Shown: one piece after another, positions 34,282-56,801 of the stretch
Layout: each line of letters starts with the position of its first letter
Numbering within the stretch: the first letter of the stretch is position 1
Assembly (NCBI GenBank): GCA_051859245.1
Contig: JBHYGA010000001.1
Coordinates: forward strand, 672,001 to 736,000
DNA from: Gemmatimonadaceae bacterium
GTDB taxonomy: Bacteria; Gemmatimonadota; Gemmatimonadetes; Gemmatimonadales; Gemmatimonadaceae
Length of the DNA: 64,000 nt
Direction: 5' to 3'
Notes under the pieces: generated by a model
Databases searched by the model: none
Told to the model about the DNA's origin: nothing
What the model saw: the letters and a program-made list of their open reading frames with translations, nothing else
Translations under genes and position numbers: made by a program

Positions 34282-34461
34282 CGGGTCGCGATGACGATGC
34301 CACCAGCCGGCGGGTCACCATCCGTGACGCGCCGGTTACACCAGTTGCTTGCCGAGGTTCCAGGGCGCTCCTAGCTTTCGGTTCGTTACAATCGAACCAG
34401 CACAATGGGTACGTCTACCCATTGTTGGTGCAAGCGCGTTCCATCTTCCTCTTCAGGTCAC

Positions 34462-37400
34462 ATGCGCATACAGCGTTGGTTGAGTGTGGCAGTCGCGGCG
34501 ATTGCTTTTGTGATGAGCAATGTCAGCGAAGTCGCCGCACAGGGACTCACGACAGGTGCCGTTGGCGGACTCGTCACGGACAACCTCGATCGCCCGGCAG
34601 AGGGCGTCCAAGTGCAGATTCGAAATCAGGCCACCGGCTTCAGCGCAGGTGGCCTGACGCGTTCCAACGGTCGGTATCTCGTACAGGGACTCGCCGTTGG
34701 TACGTACACGGTGACGATTCGCCGCATCGGCTTTGAGCCGGTCACCCGTGACAACATTCAGGTGACGCTCGGTCAGACGACCGTGGTGGATGTGGCGCTG
34801 AAAGAAGCCACGACGCAGATCGCGGGCGTCACGATCACCGGCGCGGGTACGGGTGCTGATTTCTCGCCGTCCAAGCAGGGGGCGGGCACTGTGTTGAATG
34901 ACACCATCATTCGCCGCATCCCCACGCTGAACCGCAACTTCACGGATCTCACACGCGCGACACCGCAGGTCTCGCAGCCGCAGGCTGGCGGTGGTCCGTC
35001 GGCGGGTGGTGTGTACAACCGATTCAACAACTACACCGTTGACGGTGTGAATCAGAACGATCGCTTCAGCCTCAGCGGATCAAGTGGCACGCCGGGTGGC
35101 GCCACCAACGGCCGCATCATGTCGATTGAAGCCGTCAAAGAGTTCCAGGTGTTGCTGAGCCCGACCGACGTGCGCTACGGCAACTTTGCCGGCATGCTCG
35201 TGAATGCGGTGACCAAGAGCGGTACAAATCAGTGGCAGGGTGGCGCGACGTATACGTTCCGCACGCCGCAGATGGCGTACGACACGCTGTTCATTCGCGG
35301 CTCGGATTTTGACGTGAAGCAGTTTGGCTTCTCGCTTGGTGGCCCGATCATCAAGGACAAGCTGCACTTCTTCGTTGCGCCGGAGTTCCAGCAGCGCACG
35401 GATCCGACGGCTGGTCCGTCTGTCGACGTCGCGGGCAACCGAATCGGTGACGTATCCCTCGATTCAATCTCGCGCATCGCGCAGATCATGTCGGCTCGCG
35501 GGCTCGACGTGGGAACCACAGCGTCGATCCGCCGTGAAAACCCGCTCTCAAATCTGTTCGGCCGATTGGACTGGCAGATCAATGGCGCCAACCGTCTGGC
35601 GTTCCGTCAGTTGTACAACACGGCGGAGCAGGATGAGTTCTCTCGCAACGTGAACAACTTCAATACAAACGTTGGCCAGCAGAACTCCGGCATTCGCCTC
35701 ACTTCGAACGCGTTCTCGCGCAAGAATACGAATATCTCGTCCGTGGCCACTCTCTACACCACGGGCCAGAGTGGCTGGAGCAATGAGCTCTCGATTGGCT
35801 ACAACACCATCAAGGACGAGCGCATTGTCCCGGTGAACACGCCGGAAATCGCGGTGGCGGTCACGCCCATCGGCGGCACGGCACCAAACCGGCCCGTGAC
35901 GTTCGGAACCGAGCGCTTCTCGCCTGGCAATCTGCTTGAGCAGCGCATCCTCGAAGTGAGCAACAACTTCACCAAGTCGTTTGGTGATCACACGCTCACG
36001 TTTGGTGGCCGCTACGAGAACACGTACATCTACAACTATTTCCTCTCGGGCGCGGCCAACGGCGCGTACATCTTCCCGAGCATCGCACGGTTACAGGCGG
36101 GCACGCCCAGCGGCTACGCGTTCTCCTACGCGAACGGTGGCGATATTGAGGCCGAGTTCAGCGGTCAGCAGCTGACGGCCTACGCGCAGGACTTGTGGAA
36201 CGTCTCGCGCAACTTTGCCGTCACGTACGGCGTGCGCGTGGATCTGCCGAGCTATCTCGATTCGCCGGTGCTCAACCAGGATATCCTCACGCGTTCTACC
36301 GCCGCTGGCAAGGAAGTGCGCACGGACTGGACGCCTGAGAGCGCACCGCTCTTCTCGCCGCGCATTGGATTTAACTGGAATGTGAACGGCGATTTCACCA
36401 CGCAGGTGCGCGGCAACATTGGCATCTTCACGGCGCCAGTACCGTACATCATGTCAGGTAACGCGTACTCCAACACGGGTTTGGGCGGCGTCACGGTGTC
36501 ATGCACCGAAGCGGCCGGCAACGTGCCTGTGTTTACCACGGATCTGTCGCAGCTGCCGACGTCGTGCGCCGGTACCGCGCCGCCAGTGCCGGGTGCTGCG
36601 GGTACGGTTGGTATCAACACCAACGATCCGAACTTCAAGAATCCGCAGAACCTCACGGCGTCGTTTGGCTTTGACCGCAAGCTGCCGGCTGGTTTTGTCT
36701 TTACGTTCGAAGGTCTGTATCGCAAGGCGATCAACGGCATGTACCTCGAAGACCTGAACTTCCGTGGTCCGCGCGAGGTGGGTGGCCAGCCGTACACGAC
36801 CAACACCGGCCGCGTGATCTACGCGGATACGATCACGACCAACGCGACGGGAGCCGTGACGGTCAATAACAACAGCCGTCGTCTGATCACCGCCACGGGT
36901 ACGAACAACCTGAACTTCGCCGAAGGTATCGTGCACCTCACGAACCAGTCGGCGGATTACAACTACACGTTGACCGGGCAGTTGCGTCGTCGCTTTGACC
37001 GTTCGCTGGAAATCGCGGGCGCCTACACGTTCATGCAGTCCAAGGACGTGCAGTCGCTCACGTCGGACCGTGCGATCTCGAACCTGCGCAACGGCAACCA
37101 GACGGGCGGCATCATTAACGACAAGACCAACGTTGGTACGTCGTACTTCGAGCGTCCGCATCGTGTGCTTGTGTTCGGCACGTACACGGCGCCGTGGACC
37201 AATGCACAAACTGACATCACCTTCTCGTGGGAAGGCATGTCCGGCACGCCATTTACTTACACCATCAATTCGGATGTAAACGGCGACGGCATTATCTCGA
37301 ACGATCCGATTTACATTCCGCGCAACGGAGCCGATCCGAGCGAGATTCGAATTGGCACCGGACTTGGCACGGCCTTCGCGCCAAACGCGGCAGCTGCCGC

Positions 37401-37809
37401 CGACTTCGAGTCGTTCATTGCCAAGCAGGATTGTCTCTCGTCGCAGCGCGGCCAGATCATGGAGCGCAACTCCTGCACGTCGCCATGGCAGAACCGCATT
37501 GACGTGTCCATTCGTCAGTCGCTGCCGCGTGTGCGCGGTCAGTCGGCCACGTTGCAGCTCGACATCTTCAACGCGGCCAACTTTGTGAATCGGGCGTGGG
37601 GCCGCATCCTGCTCCCCGTCGCGTCGCCCGACTTCCCGCAGCAGAATATTCTGACCGTTCGCAATCGCCAGGCGGCGCCGCTGTCGAGCGAAACGGCCAA
37701 CGGCTACGAGTTCGACAACCGCCTCCGCACGGGTCCGCTGTTCACCCCGTCGCCGAATCGCACGTCCGACTTGTACCAGCTCCAGCTCACGCTGCGTCTG
37801 GCGTTCTGA
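34462..37809 (+). CDS. TonB-dependent receptor (Oar-like, N-terminal carboxypeptidase-regulatory-like domain)
   Basis: Signal peptide, RNFTDL, N.TVDG, AVKEFQV, NAVTKSGTN, FSPRIGFNW, terminal QLTLRLAF. Confidence 0.92.
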   Translation: MRIQRWLSVAVAAIAFVMSNVSEVAAQGLTTGAVGGLVTDNLDRPAEGVQVQIRNQATGFSAGGLTRSNGRYLVQGLAVGTYTVTIRRIGFEPVTRDNIQVTLGQTTVVDVALKEATTQIAGVTITGAGTGADFSPSKQGAGTVLNDTIIRRIPTLNRNFTDLTRATPQVSQPQAGGGPSAGGVYNRFNNYTVDGVNQNDRFSLSGSSGTPGGATNGRIMSIEAVKEFQVLLSPTDVRYGNFAGMLVNAVTKSGTNQWQGGATYTFRTPQMAYDTLFIRGSDFDVKQFGFSLGGPIIKDKLHFFVAPEFQQRTDPTAGPSVDVAGNRIGDVSLDSISRIAQIMSARGLDVGTTASIRRENPLSNLFGRLDWQINGANRLAFRQLYNTAEQDEFSRNVNNFNTNVGQQNSGIRLTSNAFSRKNTNISSVATLYTTGQSGWSNELSIGYNTIKDERIVPVNTPEIAVAVTPIGGTAPNRPVTFGTERFSPGNLLEQRILEVSNNFTKSFGDHTLTFGGRYENTYIYNYFLSGAANGAYIFPSIARLQAGTPSGYAFSYANGGDIEAEFSGQQLTAYAQDLWNVSRNFAVTYGVRVDLPSYLDSPVLNQDILTRSTAAGKEVRTDWTPESAPLFSPRIGFNWNVNGDFTTQVRGNIGIFTAPVPYIMSGNAYSNTGLGGVTVSCTEAAGNVPVFTTDLSQLPTSCAGTAPPVPGAAGTVGINTNDPNFKNPQNLTASFGFDRKLPAGFVFTFEGLYRKAINGMYLEDLNFRGPREVGGQPYTTNTGRVIYADTITTNATGAVTVNNNSRRLITATGTNNLNFAEGIVHLTNQSADYNYTLTGQLRRRFDRSLEIAGAYTFMQSKDVQSLTSDRAISNLRNGNQTGGIINDKTNVGTSYFERPHRVLVFGTYTAPWTNAQTDITFSWEGMSGTPFTYTINSDVNGDGIISNDPIYIPRNGADPSEIRIGTGLGTAFAPNAAAAADFESFIAKQDCLSSQRGQIMERNSCTSPWQNRIDVSIRQSLPRVRGQSATLQLDIFNAANFVNRAWGRILLPVASPDFPQQNILTVRNRQAAPLSSETANGYEFDNRLRTGPLFTPSPNRTSDLYQLQLTLRLAF

Positions 37810-37870
37810 TCGCGATGGCGCGCCACCCCGGGTGAATCCGGGCTCGCCGCCACGCAGGGACGGATTGCTC

Positions 37871-37900
37871 GAGGGGGCTCTCATGGCGAGAGCCCCCTCG
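37871..37900 (+). terminator. Stem-loop downstream of the TBDR (no U-tract)
   Basis: GAGGGGGCTCTC-atggc-GAGAGCCCCCTC. Confidence 0.5.
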
Positions 37901-38069
37901 ACGTTTCGACGCCTGTTGGCTTGCGTCGTTTCGGTCGGCACAGTTCGTTTGTAACGGACGTTACGCCCTCGTGACGTGACATTCGAACTGCACGCGGTGT
38001 TCGGTGGTTTTGTTTGACATTGCGCCGTGTCGCTCCGGCACGCGCGAACCTTCGCTCGACCCTTCCATC

Positions 38070-39977
38070 ATGCCTTCTTCTTATGCAGTAGGTGCCCGCG
38101 GCCTCGCGCTCAAGCGACGACTGGCCTCGAGGTCTTCCGCCGTCGCCGCCGCCGCTGTGGCTCTGTTCGCGCTTGGCGCGTGTGACGAAGCGGTCGCGCC
38201 CGCCGGACAATCCGCGGCCGTCGACGTGCGCGTCTATCTTGATCGCGACGCGTCGGGCTCGTTTTCCGCGCCGGACAGCGGCTTGGCCGGCGTCGCCCTC
38301 ACGCTCGTGCCCACCAGCGGCCCTGAGATCGCGCTCAGCGCGACATCGGATGCCCAGGGCATTGCAACCTTCACCGAGGTGCAGCCGGGAGCCTACACGC
38401 TCACGCTGCCATCCACGGCCCCGGCGGGGACCGTGCTCGCCACGGCCAGTGCGCCGCGCGTGGTGGTGAGCGCCATCGGTCAGGTGCAAGCGCCGGAAGT
38501 CCGATACGCGTGGATGCCCGGTAGCATTTCGGGCCGCATCTTCCGCGACGATGACGCGAGCGGCGCCTTCTCCACGGGCGACACACCTGGCGCGGGTCTG
38601 TTCGTCGTGCTCTCGCGCGGCACCACACGCGTTGACTCGTTGCTCGCCGACGAGCAGGGAGCCTTCCGCTTCCCGTTCCTGACGCCCGGCAGCTATACGG
38701 TGCGTCTCGAAAATCCCGGCACGATCACGTATGCCGGCGGAGCCACGCGCACCATCGCGGTGAACGCGTCGTCGATGAATACGGTCTCGGCGATCTTCAC
38801 CGGCGCGCTGGTCATTCCGATCGCCGAAGCGCGCGCGCGGCCCGTTGGCGCGACCGTCGCGGTCATTGGCAATCTCGTGGTGCGGCCGGGCCGATTCACA
38901 TCGGGGGCGAACTCCGAGCTGTGGATTCAGGACAACACGGGTGGCATCGCGGCCTTCTCGGTGCCAACGGCCGACAGTGCGCAGTATCAGCTGGGTGACC
39001 GACTCGAAGTCTCCGGCGCGCGCAGCGCTTTCAGCCAGCAGTCGCAGATCAACATTGCCCGGATTTCGAACCTTGGTCCCGGTACGGTGCCGGCGCCCGT
39101 GTCGCAGTCGGCGGCGCAAGTCAACGCACTCACCCTGGATGGTCAGTTGGTGCGCGTGGCCAATCTCACGGTCACGTCAATCCCCACCGGCACCGGCGCG
39201 GCATTCACGGTGGTGTCGGAAGACGCGTCAGGAACGCGCGTTGAGCTTCGCATCGCGGGACTCGGCACCGGGCTTTCACGTGCGAGCTTCACCGTGGGTT
39301 CTCGCTACACCATCACCGGCGTGCTGACGCGCTTTAACGCGACAGCGCAAATCAAGATTCGCGATGTGAACGACGTGCAGGCTGGTATTCCGGTCACACC
39401 GATTGCGACCGTGCGCAGTGCTGGCGTCAATGGCACATCGTACACGATTGCTGGACGCATTACGGCCGCGCCGGGATCCTTCACGAGCGGCACGAACAAT
39501 GTGAACTCTGAAATCTGGGTGCAGGACGCAACAGGCGGCATCGCGGTATTCTCAGCGCCGACCGCAGATTCCACGACGCTCGCCCTTGGCACGCTTGTGG
39601 AAGTGGCCGGCGCGCGCAGCGCGTTCAGCGGGCAGTTGCAGCTCGGCTCGCCTGTCATCACGCGCGTTGGTGCCGGCTCGGCGATTACGCCGGTTGTGCA
39701 GACGGCCACGCAGGTTGCCGCGCGAACCCTCGAAGGTCAGCTCGTGACAATGCCCGGCTTCACGGTCACCACGATTGGTGGCGGCACAGGCGCCGCATTT
39801 ACGGTCACTGGCACCGCAGACGGCACGCCCATTCAGGTGCGAGTCGGCGGCGCGCTGCGAGGACTGTCCCGCACCTCGTTTACCGTCGGTAATACGTACT
39901 CGATTACCGGCATTCTCACGCAGTTCAACGGCACCGCGCAGATCAAGCCGCGCGTGGCAAGTGATGTGACCCCATGA
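38070..39977 (+). CDS. Lipoprotein with two SdrD-B-like domains and tandem OB-fold (nucleic-acid-binding-like) repeats
   Basis: Lipobox LGAC; VYLDRDASG and IFRDDDASG loops; two ~190-aa repeats with WIQDNTGGI/WVQDATGGI, GDRLEVSG and ITGVLT.FN..AQIK. Confidence 0.8.
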   Translation: MPSSYAVGARGLALKRRLASRSSAVAAAAVALFALGACDEAVAPAGQSAAVDVRVYLDRDASGSFSAPDSGLAGVALTLVPTSGPEIALSATSDAQGIATFTEVQPGAYTLTLPSTAPAGTVLATASAPRVVVSAIGQVQAPEVRYAWMPGSISGRIFRDDDASGAFSTGDTPGAGLFVVLSRGTTRVDSLLADEQGAFRFPFLTPGSYTVRLENPGTITYAGGATRTIAVNASSMNTVSAIFTGALVIPIAEARARPVGATVAVIGNLVVRPGRFTSGANSELWIQDNTGGIAAFSVPTADSAQYQLGDRLEVSGARSAFSQQSQINIARISNLGPGTVPAPVSQSAAQVNALTLDGQLVRVANLTVTSIPTGTGAAFTVVSEDASGTRVELRIAGLGTGLSRASFTVGSRYTITGVLTRFNATAQIKIRDVNDVQAGIPVTPIATVRSAGVNGTSYTIAGRITAAPGSFTSGTNNVNSEIWVQDATGGIAVFSAPTADSTTLALGTLVEVAGARSAFSGQLQLGSPVITRVGAGSAITPVVQTATQVAARTLEGQLVTMPGFTVTTIGGGTGAAFTVTGTADGTPIQVRVGGALRGLSRTSFTVGNTYSITGILTQFNGTAQIKPRVASDVTP

Positions 39978-40978
39978 ACTCCTCCATGACTGCTTTCACT
40001 CGTCGCACCAGACGTGCCGCGCTCGTGTGCAGCGCGTTCGCCATCGCCGCGTGCGCTGAAGAGCCGGCGCCCGTGGTGGCGGTTGCTGAAACCGGCAGCG
40101 TTTCGGGCATCCTGTTTTTTGACCGTGATAACAACGACGTGTTCACACCCACCAACGGCGATTCGATCATGCCGGGCGTGACGGTGCGATTGCTTGATCG
40201 CGGCACGACATCGGTGCTGGGATCCACCGTAACAGGCGCCGACGGACGCTACGCAATCAATGTGCCCGTGGGCACGCATGATCTCGACGTGGTGCGCTCA
40301 TCGGCCATCATTGCGAACCAGTTCATTTGGTGCGGCGCGCGTCCGAGCGTGTACGCGAACGAAGAAACGTTCGTGGCGACGCCGCTCAAGTTTGGTTGCG
40401 TGATTCGCATCAATCTGGCCAAGCCCAATCCGCTCGGCACAACGGTAACGATCGCCGGTGTGGTCACGGCGCAGCCTGGCCGGTTCCGCAATGACAACAT
40501 GTACATCCAGGATCAGACGGGCGGTATTCAGGTGTTCGGCGTATCGGCGGCACTCGGACTGCTCGAAGGTGACAGTGTTGAAGTCACGGGCGAGCTGGCG
40601 GCGTTCAACGATCAGTTGCAGATCAACGCCCCGCGCATCGCGGCCAACGTAAAGCGTGGCGTCACGATACCTGATCCTGTGCTGATTACCACGGGGCAGG
40701 CTGCATCGGCGACGACGCAGCTGTCACCAAACATTGGACGCCTGGTTCGTGTGCAGAAAGTGACCGTGGGAACGTTCGCGAGCGGCAACGCGCCAATGGA
40801 TGACGGATCTGGCGGTACGCTGCTGCGACTCGACTCGAATGCCAATACAACAATCGGGACTGGCCGATTCACGGCTGGTACCTGCTACAACATCACCGGG
40901 ATCCTCGGCTTTTTCCGTGGCGCAACGCAGTTGCAGCCGCGTGGACCCCAGGACGTGACGGAGGTTTCGTGCTCGTAA
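39974..40978 (+). CDS. Lipoprotein with one SdrD-B-like domain and an OB-fold pair (paralog of the upstream gene)
   Basis: Lipobox IAAC; LFFDRDNND; YIQDQTGGIQVF, GDSVEVTG, ITGILG....QLQPR. Confidence 0.8.
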   Translation: MNSSMTAFTRRTRRAALVCSAFAIAACAEEPAPVVAVAETGSVSGILFFDRDNNDVFTPTNGDSIMPGVTVRLLDRGTTSVLGSTVTGADGRYAINVPVGTHDLDVVRSSAIIANQFIWCGARPSVYANEETFVATPLKFGCVIRINLAKPNPLGTTVTIAGVVTAQPGRFRNDNMYIQDQTGGIQVFGVSAALGLLEGDSVEVTGELAAFNDQLQINAPRIAANVKRGVTIPDPVLITTGQAASATTQLSPNIGRLVRVQKVTVGTFASGNAPMDDGSGGTLLRLDSNANTTIGTGRFTAGTCYNITGILGFFRGATQLQPRGPQDVTEVSCS

Positions 40979-43900
40979 ATCAGGATCGTATCGGCGCTGC
41001 TCACCGCGCCACTCGTGCACTCGCTCGCTGGGCTGGTGCAACGGCAATGTTGGTTGCGTCGCTGCTTGCCACACGCACTGCCGCCGCGCAGGAAACCACG
41101 GGCTCGATTCGTGGTGTTGTCACCGCAGCCGACGCTACGCCGCTTGTCGGCGCCGTGGTGACCGCCAGAAATTCGGAAACCGGATTGTCGCGCAGCACGT
41201 CAGTGGCTGAAAGCGGTGTCTACGTGATCCGGTTGCTGCCGTCGGGTGTGTACAGCGTCACAGTGCGACGCATTGGAAGCCAGCAGCAGGAACGCACGGG
41301 CATTCGCGTGACCGTTGGAAGCACGGCGTCCGTCAACTTCGCGCTGTCCGACGCCGCTTCGGTGCTGTCGGCCGTGACCGTGACAGGCGCACAGCGCATC
41401 GACGTCGCCGAAGGCGGCGTGAAGCAGAACGTGTCGCAGGAAGAAATTCAGAACCTGCCCACACTCGGCCGCGACTTCACGGACTTCATCGCGTTGTCCG
41501 GTCTGGTGTCGCCGTCACCCGAGGCCACCACGGGCGGTCAGTTCTCTATTGCCGGCGCCCGCCCGTCGCAGACCAACGTGCAGCTCGACGGTGTCGACGC
41601 GAACAACAACTTCTTTGGCGAGAACCGCGGCGGTAGTCGCATTCCGTTCAACTTCTCGATTGAGTCGGTGAAGGAATTCCAGATTATCACGAACGGTTTT
41701 GATGTCGAGTACGGCAACTACGCCGGCGGCATCATCAACATCGTGTCGAAGGGTGGCACGAACAAGTTCCGCGCCACGGGTTACAGCAACTATCGCGGCG
41801 ATGCCCTCACGTCCGAGAATTTCAACGGCACGCCGGTGAACAACTTCCAGGCGCAGCAGTTTGCATTCCAGGCAGAAGGGCCACTCATTCGTGACAAGTT
41901 GTTCTGGCTGGTCTCGTTGGACGGACAGCGTCGTCGCGAACCGTTTGTGCCGCTTGGCCCGAATGAGCTGCGTAACAGAGCCGCTGATCTGGAGCGTCGC
42001 GCGGCGGCGTTCCCTGACTCGTCCGCCAACCTGCTCTCGCAGGCGCTGCGTCAGCGTACCACCGCCGATTCACTGGGCCGCTACTTCTCCATTCTCGAGG
42101 ACAAGTACGGCATCAGTGGCGCTGAGCGGGCGTACGACGAGTTTGCCACACGCAACGACGTGCTCACAGTATTCGCGCGACTCGATTGGAATATCAACGA
42201 TCGGAACCGTCTCTCGCTGCGCAACAGCTGGTCTGACTATGACAACGGCAACGAGACCTTCGGCGGTACATCCATTGGTGGCCTCTCGCAGGCCGAGGCA
42301 TTCCAGAATCGCACCAATGCGGTGGTCGGTGAACTCACCAGCACGCTGAGCGATCGGGCGTCGAACGTGTTCCGTTTTCAGTATTCCACCGAAGACCGTC
42401 CGCGTGTTGGCAATGATCTCAAGCCGCAGCTGCGTGTGAACAATGTGAATACGGGCTCGGCGTATGCGTGGGGTGGCAACAGCATCGCGTTCCGGAACCG
42501 GTTGATCGAGAACAAGATCCAGTTGGTGAACAACACCACGATTGATCTTGGCACACACACGCTCAAGTTCGGCACGAACAACATCTTCTCGCACTACGAG
42601 AACGACTTCTGGAATCAGGGTTCTGGTTTCTACACGTTCGACAACCTCGCGGCGCTCGAAGCGTTTCAGCCGCTGCAGTACACGCGAAACGTGCGCGCCG
42701 ACGGCTCGGCACCGCGCGCTGTGTTTGATGTACAGGAGTACTCGGTATACGGTCAGGACCAGTGGCGTGTCACGCCCCGGCTGCTGGCCACACTGGGCGT
42801 GCGCTACGACTACTCGCGTTTCGCCGACGCGCCGGGACGCGTGATTGACGCCGAGCGTGCCTTCGGAATTCAGACGGGTGTTGCACCGATCGACAAGAAC
42901 AACATCTCACCGCGTCTCGCGCTGGCGTGGGATCGCAATGGTGACGCCAGCGTGGTGTATCGCGCCGGTGTTGGCTTGTTCTACGGTCGTCTGCCCTCGG
43001 TGCTCGGTTCAAACGTTGGTATCACCGACGTACCGCTGCAGAACCTTGTGTGCAACGGCAGCGCGGCTGATGGCGATGCCAACGCGCCGCCGCCGGTTCA
43101 GAACTATGCAGACTGGGATGCGTCTGGTAACGACAATCCCTTCAACTGCGCCGGTGCCGCAGGTGTTGGCGGCATTCCCGAGTTCTCATTCTGGACACAG
43201 GGATTCGAGATTCCTGAGACGTATCGCGCGAATCTCGGGTACGAGCGCGAGCTCGGACGTCGCACCCGTTTTTCGGCGGACTATCTCTACGCCCTCACGT
43301 CCAAGCTATACACGGTGCGAAACACCAACCTCCGTCAGTCGGTGTTCTCGCTCGCGAACGAAGGTGGCCGTCAGGTGTTTGTGCCGGTCGATCGCTTCGC
43401 GCCCAACGCAGCCGCCGGCAATGATCGTTTGCTCAATACCGATTTCGGCAACGTCTTCCAGAACTTCTACGACGGCAACGCGGTCTCGCACTCGTTGACG
43501 TTCAACGTGGATCAGCGACTCGGCACCGAGTCGTCGGTGCGCGCGTCGTACACGTATGTCACGGCGTCGGACAACAGTGCGTTCTCTTGCTGCACATCCT
43601 TTTCGGGATGGAGCGATACGCGCATTGGTGGCACGGGACCGAACGACATTGGTGGCGTGGGCGATACAGACAAGGCGTGGGGCCCGTCGAGCTTTGTGCG
43701 CAACCACACGGTGATTGTATCTGGCTACGCGCCCCTGCCGTTGGGCTTCCGCCTCAGCGGCATCTGGCGCCTGCAGAGCGGCACGCCGTGGGGCCCGGAG
43801 CAGGGTGGTGATCTGAACGGCGACGGCCTGTCGTTCAACGATCGCCCGTTCATCTTTGCGCCGGATCAGTTCCCCGTTGCGATTCCAACGAGCATCACCG

Positions 43901-44316
43901 GTGCGTCGGCGCAGGCCGAGTACGTCGCGGCGCAGCGCGAAGTGTACAAGAGCTACCTCGATGCGAATCCGTGCATCAGTGAACACATTGGCTCGATCAT
44001 TCCGCGCAACACATGCCGTCAGCCCTGGTTCAACCGCCTCGATCTGTCGCTGCGCAATCGCATTCCGGTTCGCGGTGGCCAGTACGCTGAACTGTCATTC
44101 GACTTTTTCAACGTGCTCAACGGCCTCAACAAGGATTGGGGCAAGTACCAGTCCGTGTCCGCCGCGCGTCGCAACCTGATGGTGCCCGCTTCATACGATG
44201 CCGCTGGCGAAACCATCCGCTACAACCTGACGGACGACTTCGGCGACACAACCCCGCTCGGCGCCAATCTGCTGCTGCAGTTCAGCATGCAGGTCGGTGT
44301 GCGCTACGTGTTCTAG
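40969..44316 (+). CDS. TonB-dependent receptor (Oar-like)
   Basis: Signal peptide, LGRDFTDF, ESVKEFQI, NIVSKGGTN, NNISPRL, terminal QVGVRYVF. Confidence 0.92.
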   Translation: MLVNQDRIGAAHRATRALARWAGATAMLVASLLATRTAAAQETTGSIRGVVTAADATPLVGAVVTARNSETGLSRSTSVAESGVYVIRLLPSGVYSVTVRRIGSQQQERTGIRVTVGSTASVNFALSDAASVLSAVTVTGAQRIDVAEGGVKQNVSQEEIQNLPTLGRDFTDFIALSGLVSPSPEATTGGQFSIAGARPSQTNVQLDGVDANNNFFGENRGGSRIPFNFSIESVKEFQIITNGFDVEYGNYAGGIINIVSKGGTNKFRATGYSNYRGDALTSENFNGTPVNNFQAQQFAFQAEGPLIRDKLFWLVSLDGQRRREPFVPLGPNELRNRAADLERRAAAFPDSSANLLSQALRQRTTADSLGRYFSILEDKYGISGAERAYDEFATRNDVLTVFARLDWNINDRNRLSLRNSWSDYDNGNETFGGTSIGGLSQAEAFQNRTNAVVGELTSTLSDRASNVFRFQYSTEDRPRVGNDLKPQLRVNNVNTGSAYAWGGNSIAFRNRLIENKIQLVNNTTIDLGTHTLKFGTNNIFSHYENDFWNQGSGFYTFDNLAALEAFQPLQYTRNVRADGSAPRAVFDVQEYSVYGQDQWRVTPRLLATLGVRYDYSRFADAPGRVIDAERAFGIQTGVAPIDKNNISPRLALAWDRNGDASVVYRAGVGLFYGRLPSVLGSNVGITDVPLQNLVCNGSAADGDANAPPPVQNYADWDASGNDNPFNCAGAAGVGGIPEFSFWTQGFEIPETYRANLGYERELGRRTRFSADYLYALTSKLYTVRNTNLRQSVFSLANEGGRQVFVPVDRFAPNAAAGNDRLLNTDFGNVFQNFYDGNAVSHSLTFNVDQRLGTESSVRASYTYVTASDNSAFSCCTSFSGWSDTRIGGTGPNDIGGVGDTDKAWGPSSFVRNHTVIVSGYAPLPLGFRLSGIWRLQSGTPWGPEQGGDLNGDGLSFNDRPFIFAPDQFPVAIPTSITGASAQAEYVAAQREVYKSYLDANPCISEHIGSIIPRNTCRQPWFNRLDLSLRNRIPVRGGQYAELSFDFFNVLNGLNKDWGKYQSVSAARRNLMVPASYDAAGETIRYNLTDDFGDTTPLGANLLLQFSMQVGVRYVF

Positions 44317-44331
44317 TCGCCTCCAGTCGTC

Positions 44332-44372
44332 AAACGCCCCCGTCGCGATCCTTCGCGGCGGGGGCGTTTTTC
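44332..44372 (+). terminator. Intrinsic terminator
   Basis: AAACGCCCCCGTCGCGA-tcct-TCGCGGCGGGGGCGTTTTT. Confidence 0.85.
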
Positions 44373-44379
44373 ATTCCCC

Positions 44380-44566
44380 TAAGTTGTTGCTGTTTTCGTG
44401 TTCTTCGTGCTTTCGTGCCCTTCCCGCCGCAGTTCCCTTGCACTAGGCGCACGCGCGCATTCACGATCCGCCGCTGCGGCGGATTCCCCGAGATGCTCCT
44501 AATGCGAGGGAACTGCGGCGGGAAGGACACGAAAGCACGAAGGACACGAAGAAGAGCAACTGCTTA
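44380..44566. repeat. ~62-bp inverted repeat pair with triple CACGAA units and an internal hairpin (REP/REPIN-like)
   Basis: Arms 44386-44447 and 44498-44560 are reverse complements with few mismatches; inner ATCCGCCGC-t-GCGGCGGAT. Confidence 0.9.
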
Positions 44567-45424
44567 ATTGATTGGGAACTCGGGAATGAGTGTGAGGAGT
44601 TCTGGCCAATCGATGTACGGATTGCGATTGCCCTGCGCGCGTTGCACCGCGTCGTTACGGGCGCGCTCCCATGCGTCGGGGGCGTCTTCACGGGCCCACG
44701 CAATGATCAGGTCGCGTTCGAAGGCGAAGTTCGCCAGGCTGTAACCTGCTGGGCGCTGCGTGTTGTACCGCGTGTAGAAGTAGAGCAGGGCGCGCGCGAT
44801 GTCACCGCGTTTGCTCGGGCGCGGCTCGAATACAATCTGGCCGCTGTTGCCGTTCGAGTAGCCGAGTCGACTCACGTCGCCGGGCGTTTGCGGATTGGTG
44901 CTGGTCCACAACACGGTGCCGCGTACAACGCCAAAGGGAAAGTTGGAGCGCTGCGAGTTGGCGGTTTCGTCACTGGAGAACAGATGGTGCAAGTCGCTCA
45001 GGCCCGGCTCGTTTTCGGCGCCACGGCTTCTCGGCCACACATGCTCGGTGTTGATGTTGTTCGCCGCGGCGGTTGCGCGCGTGGTCACACCGGGCACCGC
45101 GCGACCTGTGTACAGATCAGTGATGAACGGCTGGTTGCCACGATCAATGAAGAGGTACAACGAATCGCGCGCGAACGTGTAGTCGAGCACGCGCTGTCCG
45201 CGAATGATTTCGTGTACGGTGGTGAGCAAGGCCGCGCCGCACCGGCTGCGCGCCGTGTTGTAATAGCCACCCGCCACGTCGGGCGGCACGGTGGTGCAGG
45301 TGTTTGGTGGCGGGATAACCGGGCCAACGGTATCTTCGAAACCGCTGCACGCGGAAAGCGCGAAGACCGCACCCACGATAGTGCTTTGCACCGTGAGGCG
45401 CGACAGAACGAACATTTTATGCAT
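44564..45424 (-). CDS. Endonuclease I (Bsn/EndA-type His-Me nuclease) lipoprotein
   Basis: Lipobox LSAC; NTEHVWPRSRG, SDLHHLF, NSQRSNFPFG, FEPR..KRGDIARALLYF, QGNRNPYID. Confidence 0.9.
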   Translation of the reverse strand: MHKMFVLSRLTVQSTIVGAVFALSACSGFEDTVGPVIPPPNTCTTVPPDVAGGYYNTARSRCGAALLTTVHEIIRGQRVLDYTFARDSLYLFIDRGNQPFITDLYTGRAVPGVTTRATAAANNINTEHVWPRSRGAENEPGLSDLHHLFSSDETANSQRSNFPFGVVRGTVLWTSTNPQTPGDVSRLGYSNGNSGQIVFEPRPSKRGDIARALLYFYTRYNTQRPAGYSLANFAFERDLIIAWAREDAPDAWERARNDAVQRAQGNRNPYIDWPELLTLIPEFPIN

Positions 45425-50264: not shown

Positions 50265-53200
50265 GTGCATTATACAGCGACTACGCTGGTTGTCCTTCCC
50301 GCTGCTGCCTCGGAGCGAGCCGTTCCGGCCCCTTTCGATCTGCTCGTACCCCACGAACGCCGCCCTGTGCGACTGATCGCCGCTGGCCTCAAACGGGTCG
50401 GCGCCGCCTTGGCCATCGCAGGGCTGCTGGCGGTCGGCGCGCATTCCCTGGCGGCGCAATCTCGTCCAACGGTAGGCGCTCCGGCGGACTCGGCGACGGC
50501 GCAACCGCCGGTTTTCCGAGGGGAGATTCTGTTCCGGCTTCCGGCGGGCCTGCGGCCGCTCACCCTCGGGGTGCTCCAGGGAAAGCCGTCGTCGGAGATC
50601 GCGGACGAGGCCGCGCAAGGGCTGGAGACACGGCTGCTGTCGCTCCGGACGCGGCAGTGGCAGCAGGCTGTACGAGCCACGCTCACCGGAACGCCAACCG
50701 GTCCGCTGCGTGAGCTGGCCGAAACCGCGCTGCCAGCGCGCGCGGCCAGCGAGGCTCGGGGGCCTGCGACCGCAGCGAGTCCCACCGAGTTGCTCGCCGG
50801 CATTGCCGATCTGAACGTTGATCTGAGCGCCCGGCTGGAAAGCAAGGTCGCCCGTTCGGTCAACGAGATCTGTACCGCCGCCCAGCGCGCGCAGTTCGGC
50901 TCGAACTGTTTCGCCACCTACCTGCCGGGCTTCGACTTTCAGGTGAATCTCGTGTCGAAAGGGGTGGTGGCCGATCGCGTGTTTGTGAACGTGGAATACG
51001 ATTCGCAAAACCAGTACGACGCGTCGAACAATATTTCACTGTTCTACCAGGGGCGCCCAGACGAAATCCTGCAACGCGTGGAAGTGGGCAACGTGAGTTT
51101 TCAGGCGCCCACCTCGCGATTCCTCACGGCCGGTATTCCGTCAAACAACTACGGCGTGCAGGCCAGCGGACAGTTCGGCCCCATGCAGTTCTCCACGATT
51201 ATTGCGCAGCAGCGCGGCAACGTGTCGCGCAACAATGTGTTTACGGTTGGCGATCGCTCGGTGCAGCAGGTGGATCGGGTCATTGAAGACATTCAGATCG
51301 AGTCGCGCCGTTTTTTCTTCACCATCGATCCGCGACAGCTCACCGGATTTCCCAACGTCGATATTCTCAACCGGCAAGCCATGCAACAGGCCGCCGCGTC
51401 GCTGCCGGACTCCGTGCGGCCGGCGCGCGTGTATGTGTATCGCCAACTCATCAGCGCGCAAAACCAGAATCCGTTGGGGCCACAGTTTTCCGTGCGTGGC
51501 GCGCGCAATCCGGCGCGTCAGATCTATGAAGTGCTGCGGGAGAATGTGGATTACTATCTCGATCCGTCGCAGCTGTGGATCGCCTTGGTGCGCCCGCTCG
51601 GCCTGAACAATGAACGCCTTGTGGTGGCGTACGACGTCAACGTTGGTGGTGTGCCGGGACGCAACGTGAACACCGGCGGTACGCCAGATATTCAGTTCAC
51701 ACCGGAACCACAGTTCGCGAATCTGCTCTGGGAACCCGAACTGCAACCGAGTGACTCGGCGTATTTTTTGCGCGAGATCAAGTCGGTGTATCGACTGGCT
51801 GGCGAAGAACTGCGACGCGAAACCGTGGATCTCAAAATCGTCACCAACACGAGCGGCGATCAGGAACAACCGCCCGATCCGTCACGCGGGCAAACGTATC
51901 TGCAGCTCTTCGGCTTGTCGCAGGCCACCAACGGGGCGCAGTTCGATGTTGAGAATCGACTGTGGCCTCGTCCGAATGATCCGAATATCTCAGCGGCTGG
52001 TGGAGCAGGGCAAAAACTGATTCGTGATTACTTCGTGGTCTTTCCGTCGCTGCAGCCCTTTGGACGCGCGGGACTCGCGCAGCCAATCGCCAATCCGGCG
52101 AACGACACCCTGTATTCGTATCCCAACGAGTATCTGTATTCTGCGCAGCGCCCGCAGTCGATCTTTCGCATACTTGCACGCTACGACGGAAGCTCCGATG
52201 GGGCCACCGGTGGAATCACGCTCGGCACCACACAATTGCGACCGGGCTCGGAACGAGTAGAACTTGACGGTCTGTTACTCGTGCGCGATCGCGACTACAC
52301 CGTGAGTTATGAAACGGGCCGCATTGCGTTCAATCGGCCCGACACGCTCTTTCCGCGTCCGCGCACCGTCAATGTGCGCTACGAAGAAAATCCGCTCTTC
52401 GCGCTCGCGGCGACTCCCACATCGATTCTTGGCTTTGCCTCGCGGTTCCCGCTCGACGCCGGCCAGTTCACCTTCACCGCAATCTCGCAGGAACAGCGCT
52501 CCGTCTCGAACCGTCCGGCGCTGGGGTACGAACCGGTAGGTTCGCTGGTGGCTGGACTGACCAGCGATCTCGCGTGGGAGGCTCCGCAGCTGAGCCGATT
52601 GATGTCGCGCCTCGGCCTTGGTGAAACCGGTGCCGCGTCACGTGTTGCGTTGCAGGGTGAGTTTGCGATGAGTCGACCGCGTCCAAACGCGGCCGGACAA
52701 GCGTACATCGAATCGTTCGAAGGGGACGCGGGCACACAGGTGCAGCTGTTCGAAGGAGCGTGGTATCTGGGTAGCCAGCCGCAAGGCTCCGCGCGCGTGC
52801 CGTCGCTCGGAAGCAACCTGTTTACCCTCAATCGCGCGACCACGCTCGCGTGGCAGAATACCGGGCTCACACGCAATGGACGATTCGTTGCGTACACCAT
52901 CGATCAGATCGATCCGTCGGCACGATTCACCACGAGTGGATTGCAGTCGCCGGAGCAGGTGCTGTTTCTGAATCTGTATCCACAGCGTGCGGGCGGCGGA
53001 CTTGGCTTTGAACCGTCTACGGGAAACCCAACATTTCAGTGGACCACCGGTAGCACATCGTCGCTGCCAACAGGACGTCGCTGGCGCACCATTCGCACAG
53101 TGCTCAATCCAAGTGGACGTGATTTGTCGCGCGTTGAGGATCTTGAGTTCTACGCGCTGGTGTACACGGACCCAGGAAGCGAGGCGCGCAATCCCACCCT

Positions 53201-56200
53201 TGTCTTTGACTTTGGTGAGATCAGCGAGAATAGTGTGGCCTACGCGCCTGATACGCTGATCATTCGGCCCAGCACCACCGTTCCAGGGCGCGTGGACACG
53301 CTGTATCGAGGCAAACGACTGGTCGGATACAACCGGCTTGATTCCGAACGTGATGCGTTCTCGCGTGCGTTCAACGCAGTGACGGATGACAACGGACTGC
53401 CGGAGAGCCTGCTCGATTCCGTCATCGTAATTGATTCAACCGCGGCCAATCCCACGCCCGTGCTCACCAGCGGTGTGGCGATCTGCAGCAGCACATCGCA
53501 AACGCAACAACTCATCGGCGACAGTCGCGCGAACTGCACGGCGCGCAACAATCGTCTCGACGAAGAAGACATCGATCTCGATGGACAGCTCAACATGTCC
53601 GCCGAAACGGCGCCTGAGTTGGAGCGATTCAAACGCTTTGTTGTTGACCTGTCAGACCGCAACACATGGACACGCGAAGGTCGTTGCCAGCGTACGGCTC
53701 CGCTTGATGCACCGGCGGATTCCGCGGAGCAATGTTGGGTGCAAGTGCGCCTGAACTGGCGCACGCCCACCGACTCTGTGGGCACGCAGAACGATCGCCG
53801 AGTGCGTGCGCTGCGACTGTCACTCGTGTCGAACGCGGCATTGCCCGATAGTGCATTTACCGGCACGGCACTCGCGCGCCTCCGTCTGGTTGGCGCGCCG
53901 TGGCTCAAGCGCACGGAGCGTCCGATCAGCGGACTCGCCGGTGATTCGTTGGCGTCGCTCAGCGGTGGGTATGTGATTGCGTCGGTGATCGGATCGCTCG
54001 ACTCGACGGGCGACGTTCCGTATTCGCCGCCGCCCGGTGTGGCCGAGGTGCCTGAAGACAGACAGACGGGTCTCGAAGCGAGTCGTGTGCAGGTGAACGA
54101 ACGCGCGCTGCGATTGCTTGCGGGCGGATCACCCGGACAGTCGTTCCGACCGTTCGATCGCGCTGAAGCCTATCTTCGCTTTCCTGAAGGTCTCAAGAGC
54201 TTCATGGGCTACCGCACGTTGCGCTTGTGGATGCGCGGTCGCGGGAGCGGTTGGGGCCCGGACGGCGAGCTGCAGGGATTCGTGAAGATCGGCCGTGATG
54301 AACACAACTTTTACGCCTACCGTACGCCGGTGAATACGGGCGCAACACAGAATGCGTGGGAGCCTGAAGTCCGCGTCAATCTGCAGCGCTTTCAAACACT
54401 CCGCGCGAAGCTCGAGAATTTGTTTCTGCAGGGCAGTGCCGACTCGATCGCGTGCAGTGGTGCCGATCTTGAGTTGGTGCGTCGCTCTGGTCTACCGATC
54501 ACCAGTACGGTGCGCCGCTACGCGGTGTGCGAAGATGGTTACATCGTGTACACCACCGATCCCACCGTCACACCACCCAACCTCGCTGGCGTGCAGGAGC
54601 TGGCCGTGGGTTTCGTGCGCGTGGATTCCGTGCCGCGTTCGGCCAATGCCATCATGCCGAATGACACACTTGAACTGTGGATCAACGACATTCGCTTGAC
54701 CGATGTGGTAGACGACATGGGCTTCGCTGGCGAACTCGGGCTCACGCTCAACGCCGGCGATTTCATGGACGTGCGCGGTGCAGTGCGTCGACGCGATCCA
54801 AACTTCCGTCAACTTGGTGAGGCGCCCAGCTTTCTCACCGAGAACGGCTTTTCGCTCGGCACCACGTTGCACCTCGAACATTTGTTTCCGAGGCGTTTCG
54901 GAATCGTGGCGCCGCTGTCCATAGACTACAGCGGCAACGAAGTGGATCAGCTCTTTGTCAATCGTACTGATATTCGCGCCGAGGGCATTGAAGGACTGCG
55001 CAACCCGCGCGCTGGTCGTGTGAACTATGCGCTGACGGTTCGCCGGGAAACGAGACTCACGGACGGATGGTACGCCGCGTTCGTCAACGGATTTGCGCTG
55101 AATGCGGCGTGGGGACGTGGCAGTTCGCAAAGCGCGTTCCAGACGGGTCGGTCGAACAACTACCTCGTCAACGCGATCCTGGATTTCACGAGCGCGCCGC
55201 GCGAAAGCCCGTTGCCGAGGTGGTCGCTGCGTGTCTTTGATGTCTTTCCTCAGTCGCTTCGCAACTCCCGGGCATTGCGTGCGCTTCGCGAAACGCCGGT
55301 TCGGTGGAATCCATCCGAGTTGCGATTCTCGAGCGGCCTGTCTCGACAGGCGGCGCGCACGACAAGCTTTTTGAAGCCAGCCTTTGCACAAGCGGACACC
55401 GGGCAAGTTGCCGAAGCGCTGAATCATGTGTGGCAGAACACGGGCGTGCTGGAGTTTCGTCCAACCGCATCGTTGAGCGCGCGAGTGAACGCACGGCAGG
55501 TATTGGATCTGCGCGATTACGCGAACGCATCCACGCTCGCCGACAGCGCCGAGCGTCGCGAAGCCACCGAGGCTGAGCGTATTCGCGTGCTGGGCGCGAA
55601 TGTTGGGTTGGAGCGTGAGCGGTCCGTCAATACGGCGTTTCGGTTTGCGCCCGCACTGTTGCCGTGGCTCCGACCGCGAGCGGAACTCACCACAGGATTT
55701 GCGCTCCTCAAGGATCCCAACGCGCGTGCGCTGCTGCGCAACGCGGATTCCCTTGGCGGACTGCGTCTGCCCAAACGCCTCGGCGCCAATCAGAGCGTCA
55801 CGACCGGACTCACGTTCGATCTCGTGCGTCTCACGGAAGGTCGATTCAATCCGCTGGTTACACGTTGGATTCGTGCGTTGCAACCGGTCGATGCCACATG
55901 GTTCCGGGCGCTCGATTCAAATTACGACAACGTATTCGCCGTACCGAACGGTGGGTATCAGTTCGGGTTTGGCGGTCTCGATCTGTTCCGCGGTGTTGAT
56001 GGCACACTCGCCACGGCGGCTGGTCGTACACGGCGTGTGATCGTCACGGGCGGGCTCAATCTGCCACTCTCGCTCAGCGTGACCACACGCGCCGAGTTGG
56101 GTCGTTCCGAAACGTGGTCCCGTCGTGTGCGTGACGGATTCCAGGCGCTGATCACGAGCGACCAGGACGTCTACCCGGACATCACGTTGCGTTGGCAGTG

Positions 56201-56801
56201 GCGTCCGGCCCGTTCGCTCGGCCCATTCGTTGGCCTTGGCGCCACGGCGGGTTACGCGCGCAATGCGCAGCGCACCGATGTGCTCAATGAGCTCGGCGGC
56301 TTCGCGGATCGCACGCGGGGTCGCGCCGAGCGCATGCCGATTTCGGCGAGTCTGTCGTGGAATGTGTTTGGCCCACTGACCACATCGGCGTCGCTCAGTC
56401 GCACCACACGATCCGATGAACGCCCCGGCGCGCTCACGAACAGTGAATCAAACGACGTGTCACTCGGTCTCGCGCGCACATTCGCGCTGCCCGCCGAGTG
56501 GAAGCAACGCAGCGGACTGCGGACACAACTCACCTGGCAACGACAGGGCGCTCGCAGTGTGGTCAGTAACGCGCTGACGTCATTGTCGTCCTCAACGCCA
56601 ACCCTCTTTGAGGCGGTGTTGGCAGACAACGGTCGTGAGGCCTTCAATCTCAATGCCGACACCGATCTGTCGGAGACGTTGACGTTCTCCCTCGCCGGAT
56701 CGCACGTGATCACATACGATCGCAACTTTAACCGGCGATTCGCGCAGACCACGTTCAGCGCAATCCTCCAGCTCAACTTTTTCGGAAGCGCGTTGCGATA
56801 G
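50265..56801 (+). CDS. sprA: SprA/Sov-like giant outer-membrane protein (T9SS translocon homolog); true start possibly GTG 50367
   Basis: 2178 aa, signal peptide; NVEYDSQ..YD..NNI.LFYQG.PDEILQRVEVGNVSF..P.SRF, GSERVELDG..L.RDRDYTV.YETGRI, YIESFEG, LDEEDIDLDG, ELWINDIRL; C-terminal amphipathic beta strands. Confidence 0.75.
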   Translation: MHYTATTLVVLPAAASERAVPAPFDLLVPHERRPVRLIAAGLKRVGAALAIAGLLAVGAHSLAAQSRPTVGAPADSATAQPPVFRGEILFRLPAGLRPLTLGVLQGKPSSEIADEAAQGLETRLLSLRTRQWQQAVRATLTGTPTGPLRELAETALPARAASEARGPATAASPTELLAGIADLNVDLSARLESKVARSVNEICTAAQRAQFGSNCFATYLPGFDFQVNLVSKGVVADRVFVNVEYDSQNQYDASNNISLFYQGRPDEILQRVEVGNVSFQAPTSRFLTAGIPSNNYGVQASGQFGPMQFSTIIAQQRGNVSRNNVFTVGDRSVQQVDRVIEDIQIESRRFFFTIDPRQLTGFPNVDILNRQAMQQAAASLPDSVRPARVYVYRQLISAQNQNPLGPQFSVRGARNPARQIYEVLRENVDYYLDPSQLWIALVRPLGLNNERLVVAYDVNVGGVPGRNVNTGGTPDIQFTPEPQFANLLWEPELQPSDSAYFLREIKSVYRLAGEELRRETVDLKIVTNTSGDQEQPPDPSRGQTYLQLFGLSQATNGAQFDVENRLWPRPNDPNISAAGGAGQKLIRDYFVVFPSLQPFGRAGLAQPIANPANDTLYSYPNEYLYSAQRPQSIFRILARYDGSSDGATGGITLGTTQLRPGSERVELDGLLLVRDRDYTVSYETGRIAFNRPDTLFPRPRTVNVRYEENPLFALAATPTSILGFASRFPLDAGQFTFTAISQEQRSVSNRPALGYEPVGSLVAGLTSDLAWEAPQLSRLMSRLGLGETGAASRVALQGEFAMSRPRPNAAGQAYIESFEGDAGTQVQLFEGAWYLGSQPQGSARVPSLGSNLFTLNRATTLAWQNTGLTRNGRFVAYTIDQIDPSARFTTSGLQSPEQVLFLNLYPQRAGGGLGFEPSTGNPTFQWTTGSTSSLPTGRRWRTIRTVLNPSGRDLSRVEDLEFYALVYTDPGSEARNPTLVFDFGEISENSVAYAPDTLIIRPSTTVPGRVDTLYRGKRLVGYNRLDSERDAFSRAFNAVTDDNGLPESLLDSVIVIDSTAANPTPVLTSGVAICSSTSQTQQLIGDSRANCTARNNRLDEEDIDLDGQLNMSAETAPELERFKRFVVDLSDRNTWTREGRCQRTAPLDAPADSAEQCWVQVRLNWRTPTDSVGTQNDRRVRALRLSLVSNAALPDSAFTGTALARLRLVGAPWLKRTERPISGLAGDSLASLSGGYVIASVIGSLDSTGDVPYSPPPGVAEVPEDRQTGLEASRVQVNERALRLLAGGSPGQSFRPFDRAEAYLRFPEGLKSFMGYRTLRLWMRGRGSGWGPDGELQGFVKIGRDEHNFYAYRTPVNTGATQNAWEPEVRVNLQRFQTLRAKLENLFLQGSADSIACSGADLELVRRSGLPITSTVRRYAVCEDGYIVYTTDPTVTPPNLAGVQELAVGFVRVDSVPRSANAIMPNDTLELWINDIRLTDVVDDMGFAGELGLTLNAGDFMDVRGAVRRRDPNFRQLGEAPSFLTENGFSLGTTLHLEHLFPRRFGIVAPLSIDYSGNEVDQLFVNRTDIRAEGIEGLRNPRAGRVNYALTVRRETRLTDGWYAAFVNGFALNAAWGRGSSQSAFQTGRSNNYLVNAILDFTSAPRESPLPRWSLRVFDVFPQSLRNSRALRALRETPVRWNPSELRFSSGLSRQAARTTSFLKPAFAQADTGQVAEALNHVWQNTGVLEFRPTASLSARVNARQVLDLRDYANASTLADSAERREATEAERIRVLGANVGLERERSVNTAFRFAPALLPWLRPRAELTTGFALLKDPNARALLRNADSLGGLRLPKRLGANQSVTTGLTFDLVRLTEGRFNPLVTRWIRALQPVDATWFRALDSNYDNVFAVPNGGYQFGFGGLDLFRGVDGTLATAAGRTRRVIVTGGLNLPLSLSVTTRAELGRSETWSRRVRDGFQALITSDQDVYPDITLRWQWRPARSLGPFVGLGATAGYARNAQRTDVLNELGGFADRTRGRAERMPISASLSWNVFGPLTTSASLSRTTRSDERPGALTNSESNDVSLGLARTFALPAEWKQRSGLRTQLTWQRQGARSVVSNALTSLSSSTPTLFEAVLADNGREAFNLNADTDLSETLTFSLAGSHVITYDRNFNRRFAQTTFSAILQLNFFGSALR

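Follow-up and report, generated by a model that had tools for sequence, protein, structure and literature searches.

A candidate phosphate-responsive operon for scavenging extracellular DNA and RNA in a Gemmatimonadaceae bacterium

We describe an operon of three genes, met by a convergent nuclease gene, that probably serves the scavenging of extracellular DNA and RNA for phosphorus under phosphate starvation. It lies in a stretch of 64,000 nucleotides from a Gemmatimonadaceae bacterium (GenBank assembly GCA_051859245.1, contig JBHYGA010000001.1, forward strand positions 672,001 to 736,000), hereafter the window; the names of homologues likewise point to a host in this family. The operon encodes two lipoproteins, termed LP1 and LP2, and a TonB-dependent receptor, and the gene converging on it encodes a lipoprotein endonuclease I. 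The proposal is read from sequences and structural models and draws on four observations: the gene layout, the folds of the lipoproteins, a nuclease that recurs as a neighbour in relatives, and a promoter repeat that the operon has in common with pstS. In soils and waters, nucleic acids outside cells make up a pool of phosphorus, and the Gemmatimonadota, which are common in such places, are poorly understood.

The genes for LP1 (635 aa), LP2 (334 aa) and the receptor (1115 aa, GTG start, C-terminal phenylalanine) overlap by 4 and 10 bp, respectively, and the endonuclease gene lies behind mlaD, 41 bp from the mlaD stop (45466). Lipoboxes were found in LP1 (LGAC38), LP2 (IAAC27) and the endonuclease (LSAC26). 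Pfam assigned DUF5689 (60.9 bits, cut-off 28.6) and SdrD_B (60.2 bits) to LP1 and Endonuclease_1 (132.5 bits, cut-off 25) to the lipoprotein on the minus strand. LP2 matched DUF5689 at 28.0 bits, marginally below the cut-off, and at 29.6 bits together with its frame neighbours; language-model features assigned it to the same family (0.95; 13-22% of cluster members carry the family). The receptor combines PF25183 (231.6 bits) with CarboxypepD_reg, a plug and a TonB barrel. Among seven window proteins, Pfam detected neither a SusD nor a glycoside hydrolase family, and the NCBIfam scan likewise gave no SusD. The original prediction had placed the same four open reading frames at these positions, with two lipoproteins built from SdrD-B-like stalks and OB units, a TonB-dependent receptor, a converging endonuclease I and neither SusD nor glycoside hydrolase; its query whether the OB units are DUF5689-like can be answered positively. 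Its outline of the locus was too narrow, since a second PF25183 receptor, 28% identical to the main one, lies directly 5' of the operon and both transcription units have a conserved repeat in front of them. We found a single copy of the lipoprotein pair and of the endonuclease in the genome. Relatives throughout the genus, the family and Longimicrobiales retain the order LP1-LP2-receptor; the length of LP2 is conserved and that of LP1 varies among relatives.

The fold of LP2 was modelled with AlphaFold2 from a 70-sequence alignment (pLDDT 92). The model revealed one SdrD-B domain (approximately residues 39-141) followed by two OB folds (approximately 142-230 and 232-334), as had been anticipated for the repeats. 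The motif QDxTGGI...G(D/T)x(L/V)EVxG occurs three times, each copy in the first OB fold of a tandem pair, and homology suggests that LP1 holds four OB folds in two tandem pairs. In Foldseek, HIN-domain DNA binders were on top of the matches to the LP2 model (p204, E 2e-7), with p202 (4JBM) at rank 14; the p202 HIN structure was also matched by the published model of DdbD (10.1101/2025.03.18.642099). VIA-align superposed both LP2 OB folds on RPA, Teb1 and Stn1 with Z scores of about 10-11 and root-mean-square deviations of 2-3 Å. At the level of sequence, matches to the PDB were weak (SdrD, E 0.16; AIM2, E 0.23).

We found a more specific feature in three aromatic residues of the OB surface, at LP2 positions 188, 211 and 314. 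Among 37 OB pairs from the clade of the window lipoproteins, aromatics occupy them in 35, 36 and 25, and among 8 OB pairs that are fused to EEP or PLD nuclease domains in 8, 6 and 6. The corresponding tallies are 0, 3 and 2 of 3 rows of the DdbD type, and 0, 1 and 1 of 38 OB pairs from paralogues in polysaccharide clusters. We therefore group the window lipoproteins with the nuclease-associated DUF5689 domains. LP1 is predicted to bind nucleic acid at the cell surface in a role like that of SusE/F, and LP2 is predicted to be the partner of the receptor, comparable to DdbD.

The paralogues just mentioned are common in the phylum and are arranged the other way round, the receptor preceding a single OB lipoprotein. 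They are set among PEP-CTERM and polysaccharide genes (by Pfam for three loci, via open reading frame sequences for the others), and nine nuclease, nucleotidase and competence queries gave no match in 27 paralogue loci. In the receptor tree they form a separate clade with a support of 1.0. This tree uses the last 1080 residues in a fast MAFFT alignment, omits 20 of 78 receptors (19 near-redundant, one partial) and is rooted at its midpoint, so that no order of events is claimed. The paralogue loci (L030-L032, L117 and L119-L141 in our numbering) carry an OB surface signature of their own, with R in place of F211 and P313, and the module possibly acts in polysaccharide export or binding. Its existence rules out the general rule that any pair of OB lipoprotein and receptor indicates nucleic acid. 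For the window the original prediction is supported, but the pairing taken alone would not suffice for it.

Linkage of the nuclease to the operon was followed in 401 genomes spread evenly over the phylum, with E<=1e-70 defining a close LP2 orthologue. Such orthologues occur in 17 genomes. Endonuclease I was found in 10 genomes and adjoins the operon in nine of them. Among the 17 operon loci, nine have endonuclease I and five a ComEC-like metallo-beta-lactamase (MBL) lipoprotein as neighbour, two are cut by contig ends and one has neither. The gene behind the receptor is not simply a follower of mlaD: endonuclease I stays by the receptor without an adjacent mlaD in eight loci (L051, L053, L055, L059, L065, L112, L115, L200), mlaD is 4.7 kb off in L052, the endonuclease is co-oriented with the operon in L033, and mlaD follows the receptor without any endonuclease in L057 and L211. 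The earlier caveat that the linkage might be incidental is overturned by these data, and the synteny survey proposed together with it has come out in favor of an association, with a nuclease or MBL neighbour in 14 of 17 loci. E127-H128, N156 and N161, which we take to be the active-site motif of endonuclease I, are invariant in the alignment, and the Vibrio nuclease 1OUO was matched with E 4e-12. Outside the family, the place of the endonuclease is taken by the divergent MBL-fold lipoprotein, whose closest solved structures are the MBL domain of ComEC (E 3e-14) and the phosphorylcholine esterase CbpE (E 4e-10). Close orthologues of it occur in 6 of 401 genomes, all adjoining LP1, although five of the six were in the query alignment; the search gave 20 further, weaker matches. 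Single loci add Endonuclease_NS (L069), a 5'-nucleotidase (L107) or an adenosine deaminase (L067). The nuclease is probably transcribed apart from the operon, with a hairpin lying between them and no box upstream of it. In L052, L053 and L200, where the endonuclease does not follow mlaD, a conserved inverted repeat TGACATC...GATG[T/A]C precedes it, possibly the site of a separate regulator.

Alignment of the upstream regions revealed a direct repeat, GT[T/G]AC-N6-GT[T/G]AC with an 11-bp period, before LP1 and before the upstream receptor. It precedes LP1 in 15 of 36 loci, mostly of the same genus (0.02 expected from shuffles), and the upstream receptor in 14 of 15 homologous regions. When the 3658 upstream regions were scored with a matrix built from the relatives, pstS came 20th; the top 20 also contain the receptor of the pst cluster, the receptor beside an NPP/GDPD gene, a lipoprotein with a weak phytase-like match below the cut-off, and unrelated genes. 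In the same genus the repeat stands before pstS in 9 of 9 loci, with ATTAC as first half-site. Across different genera, 19 of 30 loci with a second type of pstS have it as well, in every case on the coding strand (0.075 expected; 18 of 29 when genome G021 is left out), and a family-wide search for the first type added one locus (L249), without the box. A T-rich -10-like element starts about 32 nt 3' of the repeat in the three promoter sets compared. Inside the phoBR-pst cluster the repeat precedes the receptor in 6 of 6 cases, with an imperfect second half, and the lipoprotein in 4 of 4 testable ones. Pho boxes are 11-bp direct repeats with a taxon-specific consensus (PMC9306846), and we regard the element as a likely Pho box because the operon and pstS promoters have it in common. 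Beside the pst cluster, a PhoB/PhoR-like pair is encoded (NCBIfam gave PhoB as the best match at 243 bits, below the cut-off of 296); on sequence grounds we infer the repeat to be the Pho box of the family, and binding by PhoB is predicted. A general promoter element is unlikely, with 33 exact matches genome-wide, 13 of them with the downstream TT geometry. Our literature search found no paper joining "Pho box" and "Gemmatimonad".

The element also stands before other genes. A phosphate island (G000:C1:988491-1011154; L215, L217) holds phoU-like, pstBACS, ppk and ppx-like genes, a second pstS, a lipoprotein with FN3 domains, a TonB receptor and the PhoR/PhoB-like pair. The candidate box is found at three of its promoters, and downstream lie genes resembling those for 5'-nucleotidase and adenosine deaminase. 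Another lipoprotein (G000:C4:915209-917956, L218), with Ig domains, three lamin-tail domains and the weak phytase-like match, has the repeat in exact form upstream in 2 of the 3 genomes that were compared.

The main receptor was modelled as a plugged barrel (AlphaFold2, pLDDT 83.9) and most resembles YddB and FusA (E 1e-35 to 1e-33); a search with its profile gave no closely related solved structure (best E 1e-10). Plug, beta-barrel and the C-terminal aromatic residue identify it as a TonB-dependent transporter. The label Oar-type, which we give to both window receptors, comes from the domain architecture and from background knowledge of Oar. In close relatives (L022, L024-L028, L193) the slot 5' of LP1 holds differing PF25183 receptors, from 93% down to 30% identical to that of the window; L035 has nothing in this slot, and in L193 the slot is inverted. 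The promoter repeat is retained while the receptor changes, and we describe this position as an exchangeable receptor slot. A third related receptor converges on an NPP-GDPD fusion gene (G000:C7:132411-138053, L223) and has the repeat with one mismatch upstream. In Bacteroidota (L165, L166, L181, also L183 and L189), a PF25183 receptor is found with a small lipoprotein, which is DUF4397 in L165 and L166, and a DUF5689-EEP nuclease secreted by the type IX secretion system (T9SS). These loci have the same parts as the window operon in a different arrangement.

The idea of a SusD-free locus for DNA utilisation is already published, and systems of this kind are known from Bacteroides thetaiotaomicron (ddbABCDEF; 10.1101/2025.03.18.642099; PMC12478041) and from Riemerella (PMC8459023), the subjects of the only two works on DUF5689 that our literature search gave, both on Bacteroidota. 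The original prediction of such a nucleic-acid system is supported here by the OB folds, the layout, the nuclease linkage and the repeat; as a concept it is not new. The window system resembles these loci in kind and has a different importer. With ddb it has in common a SusD-free TonB receptor with a CarboxypepD_reg extension, a DUF5689 lipoprotein with a p202 HIN-like model, and secreted nucleases. It differs in its PF25183/Oar-type receptor, remote from DdbC-type receptors, in two lipoproteins on SdrD-B stalks that are placed before the receptor, in the Pho-box-like repeat, in the phylum, and in its nuclease, which here and in relatives is endonuclease I or the ComEC-like MBL, with no EEP nuclease found by the queries used. 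The ddb paper anchors loci on DdbC (10.1101/2025.03.18.642099). We compared the window receptor with 15 proxies, taken from Bacteroidota DUF5689 loci whose layout is like that in Riemerella and several of which possess a divergent EEP nuclease, rather than with the named DdbC (WP_008762511.1) or the Pv subtype. These proxies gave no phmmer match to it (best score in the genome 32 bits) and 14% identity at E 1.9e-7 in profile-profile comparison, so that by proxy DdbC orthology is ruled out. In Flavobacterium, phosphate depletion was reported to induce TonB receptors and the PF04231 nucleases EndA1 and EndA2 (PMC8115612). Its phosphate utilisation systems are alike in having low-phosphate TonB receptors with lipoproteins and phosphodiesterases; the Pus systems use SusC/SusD pairs, and the nucleases were listed as orphans (PMC8115612), whereas the window has an OB-fold lipoprotein pair with the nuclease adjacent, and low-phosphate induction, measured in Flavobacterium, is our inference for the window operon. 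A PF25183 receptor without any SusD family lipoprotein (Pfam, NCBIfam) sets the window apart from SusCD/PusCD systems. In its accessible text, a survey of the phylum mentions pstSCAB and PhoR-PhoB and does not contain the words "nuclease" or "DNA uptake" (PMC10581226). Searches on extracellular DNA, TonB receptors or nucleases of Gemmatimonadota, on their PhoB regulon and on ComEC-MBL lipoproteins gave, judged from the listings, no work describing the locus.

We propose the following route. Low phosphate would activate both receptor promoters, with PhoB binding the repeat. LP1, facing outward on extended stalks, would gather nucleic acid through its aromatic OB surface, and the linked lipoprotein nuclease would cut the captured DNA or RNA. 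LP2 may dock on the receptor and present the fragments, and oligonucleotides would pass through the TonB-driven barrel. Periplasmic phosphatases would then dephosphorylate them and free phosphate; phoD, 5'-nucleotidase-like and NPP/GDPD genes are present in the genome. The Pho-box-like repeat adds support for phosphorus scavenging.

Several observations weigh against this proposal. The repeat is absent before LP1 in 21 of 36 loci, all distant ones among them, and in this genome it is found neither before the endonuclease (rank 2931 of 3658) nor before phoD or the phoB-like gene. PhoA was not found in the genome, and PhoX and phosphonate-binding families matched only below cut-offs; phoD is therefore the only gene on which the box could be tested independently, and no box precedes it. 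The number of exact matches is about what base composition predicts, and single sites are therefore credible only by conservation. SdrD-type and aminoacyl-tRNA synthetase OB domains scored equally high in VIA-align, and a common OB fold by itself proves no function; moreover, the OB regions are weakly basic (25 K/R against 19 D/E in LP1, 14 against 13 in LP2). No nuclease was seen at L057/G402 or at the metagenome loci L210, L211 and L213. The genomes are related, and the nuclease pattern perhaps reflects two independent associations. The MBL protein also resembles a phosphorylcholine esterase. Bacteroidota relatives of the receptor speak for the proposal, since in 14 of 22 loci they adjoin a phosphodiesterase, a phosphatase or a DUF5689 nuclease, NPP or GDPD enzymes being the most frequent, but this count has no random-receptor control and covers 38 of 91 neighbours, chosen by eye. 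Finally, B. thetaiotaomicron is reported to do poorly on DNA as sole phosphorus source (10.1101/2025.03.18.642099).

Control by phosphate would also fit the scavenging of another phosphate polymer or diester, such as teichoic-acid-like material, phospholipid head groups or polyphosphate, with the nuclease as a separate phosphorus-scavenging gene. A Pho-like box indicates phosphorus and not nucleic acid, related receptors mostly neighbour NPP or GDPD enzymes, the MBL matches CbpE, and the nuclease has no box and is separated from the receptor by a terminator. We nevertheless judge this unlikely, given the aromatic signature that the OB pairs have in common with nuclease-fused DUF5689 domains, the near confinement of endonuclease I to the operon in the phylum sample and the additional DNA/RNA non-specific endonuclease in L069. 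Decidedly unlikely, in our estimate, is an adhesion, matrix-remodelling or export module, in which the stalked lipoproteins would bind exopolysaccharide or extracellular DNA of biofilms and the receptor would export or sense. SdrD-B stalks occur in adhesins, the paralogues are set in PEP-CTERM/polysaccharide clusters and gave no nuclease match in the 27 loci queried, and the DNase BT3563 of B. thetaiotaomicron acts in biofilm formation (PMC8851478). Myxococcus xanthus Oar, which has the same architecture of N-terminal CarboxypepD_reg extension, plug and barrel, exports the protease PopC, unlike the import proposed for the window receptor (PMC6434023). The paralogues, in turn, differ in clade, gene order and aromatic signature, and the window promoters carry the pstS-type repeat.

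The operon might, alternatively, be an outer membrane DNA entry gate for natural transformation that delivers to ComEC. For Riemerella anatipestifer, the DUF5689 locus RA0C_RS04915/RA0C_RS04920 was reported to be required for transformation, and its CarboxypepD-bearing outer membrane barrel, next to a DUF5689 protein as in the window, was suggested to carry DNA through that membrane (PMC8459023). The window differs from that locus in its receptor family and in having no DUF5017, and its surface endonuclease I and pstS-type repeat favor nutrition over competence. comEC is present in the genome on a separate contig and lies two genes away from the operon in three distant loci (L066, L067, L118), and the swapped-in MBL enzyme is closest to the MBL domain of ComEC. 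A surface endonuclease I, by the activity we presume for its family, would destroy transforming DNA. Type IV pilus genes, the usual route of uptake, are in the window (pilT), the upstream repeat is that of pstS, and the operon is patchy among the phylum genomes. We consider a role in transformation improbable and favor nucleic-acid scavenging for phosphorus.

Table 1. Features of the operon and its surroundings in the window.
Feature	Position	Strand	Remark
Direct repeat GTGAC-N6-GTTAC, likely Pho box	34324..34339	+	before upstream receptor
-35-like TTGCCG; -10-like TAGCTT	34349-34354; 34372-34377	+	3' of the 34324..34339 repeat
Second Oar-type (PF25183) TonB-dependent receptor	34462..37809	+	accessory; many relatives have another receptor or none
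14-bp perfect hairpin, probable terminator	37869..37901		behind upstream receptor
Inverted half-site TGTAAC	37950-37955	+	LP1 promoter
Direct repeat GTTAC-N6-GTGAC, likely Pho box	37960-37975	+	before LP1
T-rich -10-like element	38008-38014	+	32-nt spacing equal to pstS
LP1 lipoprotein (Cys38)	38070..39977	+	DUF5689 OB folds in two tandem pairs; two SdrD-B stalks
LP2 lipoprotein (Cys27)	39974..40978	+	OB folds in a single tandem pair; one SdrD-B domain
Oar-type TonB-dependent receptor	40969..44316	+	CarboxypepD_reg, plug, PF25183 barrel; not of the DdbC type
17-bp hairpin with A/T flanks, probable bidirectional terminator	44332..44369		receptor/nuclease gap
Lipoprotein endonuclease I (Cys26)	44564..45424	-	only PF04231 gene found in the genome

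A generic scan for sigma-70 promoters and terminators gave no excess over shuffles (4 against 2.9 and 9 against 12.6, respectively). Between the terminator and the nuclease stop lies a palindromic element of about 185 bp (44380-44566) with 57-nt arms that are 91% complementary; related copies occur at 23 places in the genome, including window positions ~56870-56930, and the element is REP/MITE-like. Further downstream the window encodes a homologue of the T9SS translocon SprA/Sov (50265-56801, 899.7 bits), here in a Gemmatimonadota genome, followed by the type IV pilus genes (pilT, 59586-60746).

New here are the count of nucleases across the phylum, the residue signature by which the polysaccharide paralogues are set apart, and the candidate Pho box. 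With somewhat less than even confidence, we extend the proposal to the phylum: Gemmatimonadota may possess a PhoB-controlled nucleic-acid utilisome independent of DdbC, in which DUF5689 OB pairs on pilin-like stalks would feed an Oar-type receptor and the nuclease would be interchangeable between endonuclease I and a free ComEC-type MBL. The receptor would then belong to a wider PF25183 clade for phosphodiester scavenging, shared with Bacteroidota, and GT[T/G]AC-N6-GT[T/G]AC would be a previously undescribed Pho box of the family. The data suggest that DUF5689 has been paired with two distant receptor families, and for a large number of orphan PF25183 receptors they offer a substrate class for the first time. 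The phosphate regulon of the family would become predictable from genomes by means of the candidate Pho box. With GAU_2198 of Gemmatimonas aurantiaca as a named orthologue, the proposed uptake route is testable in a cultured genus.

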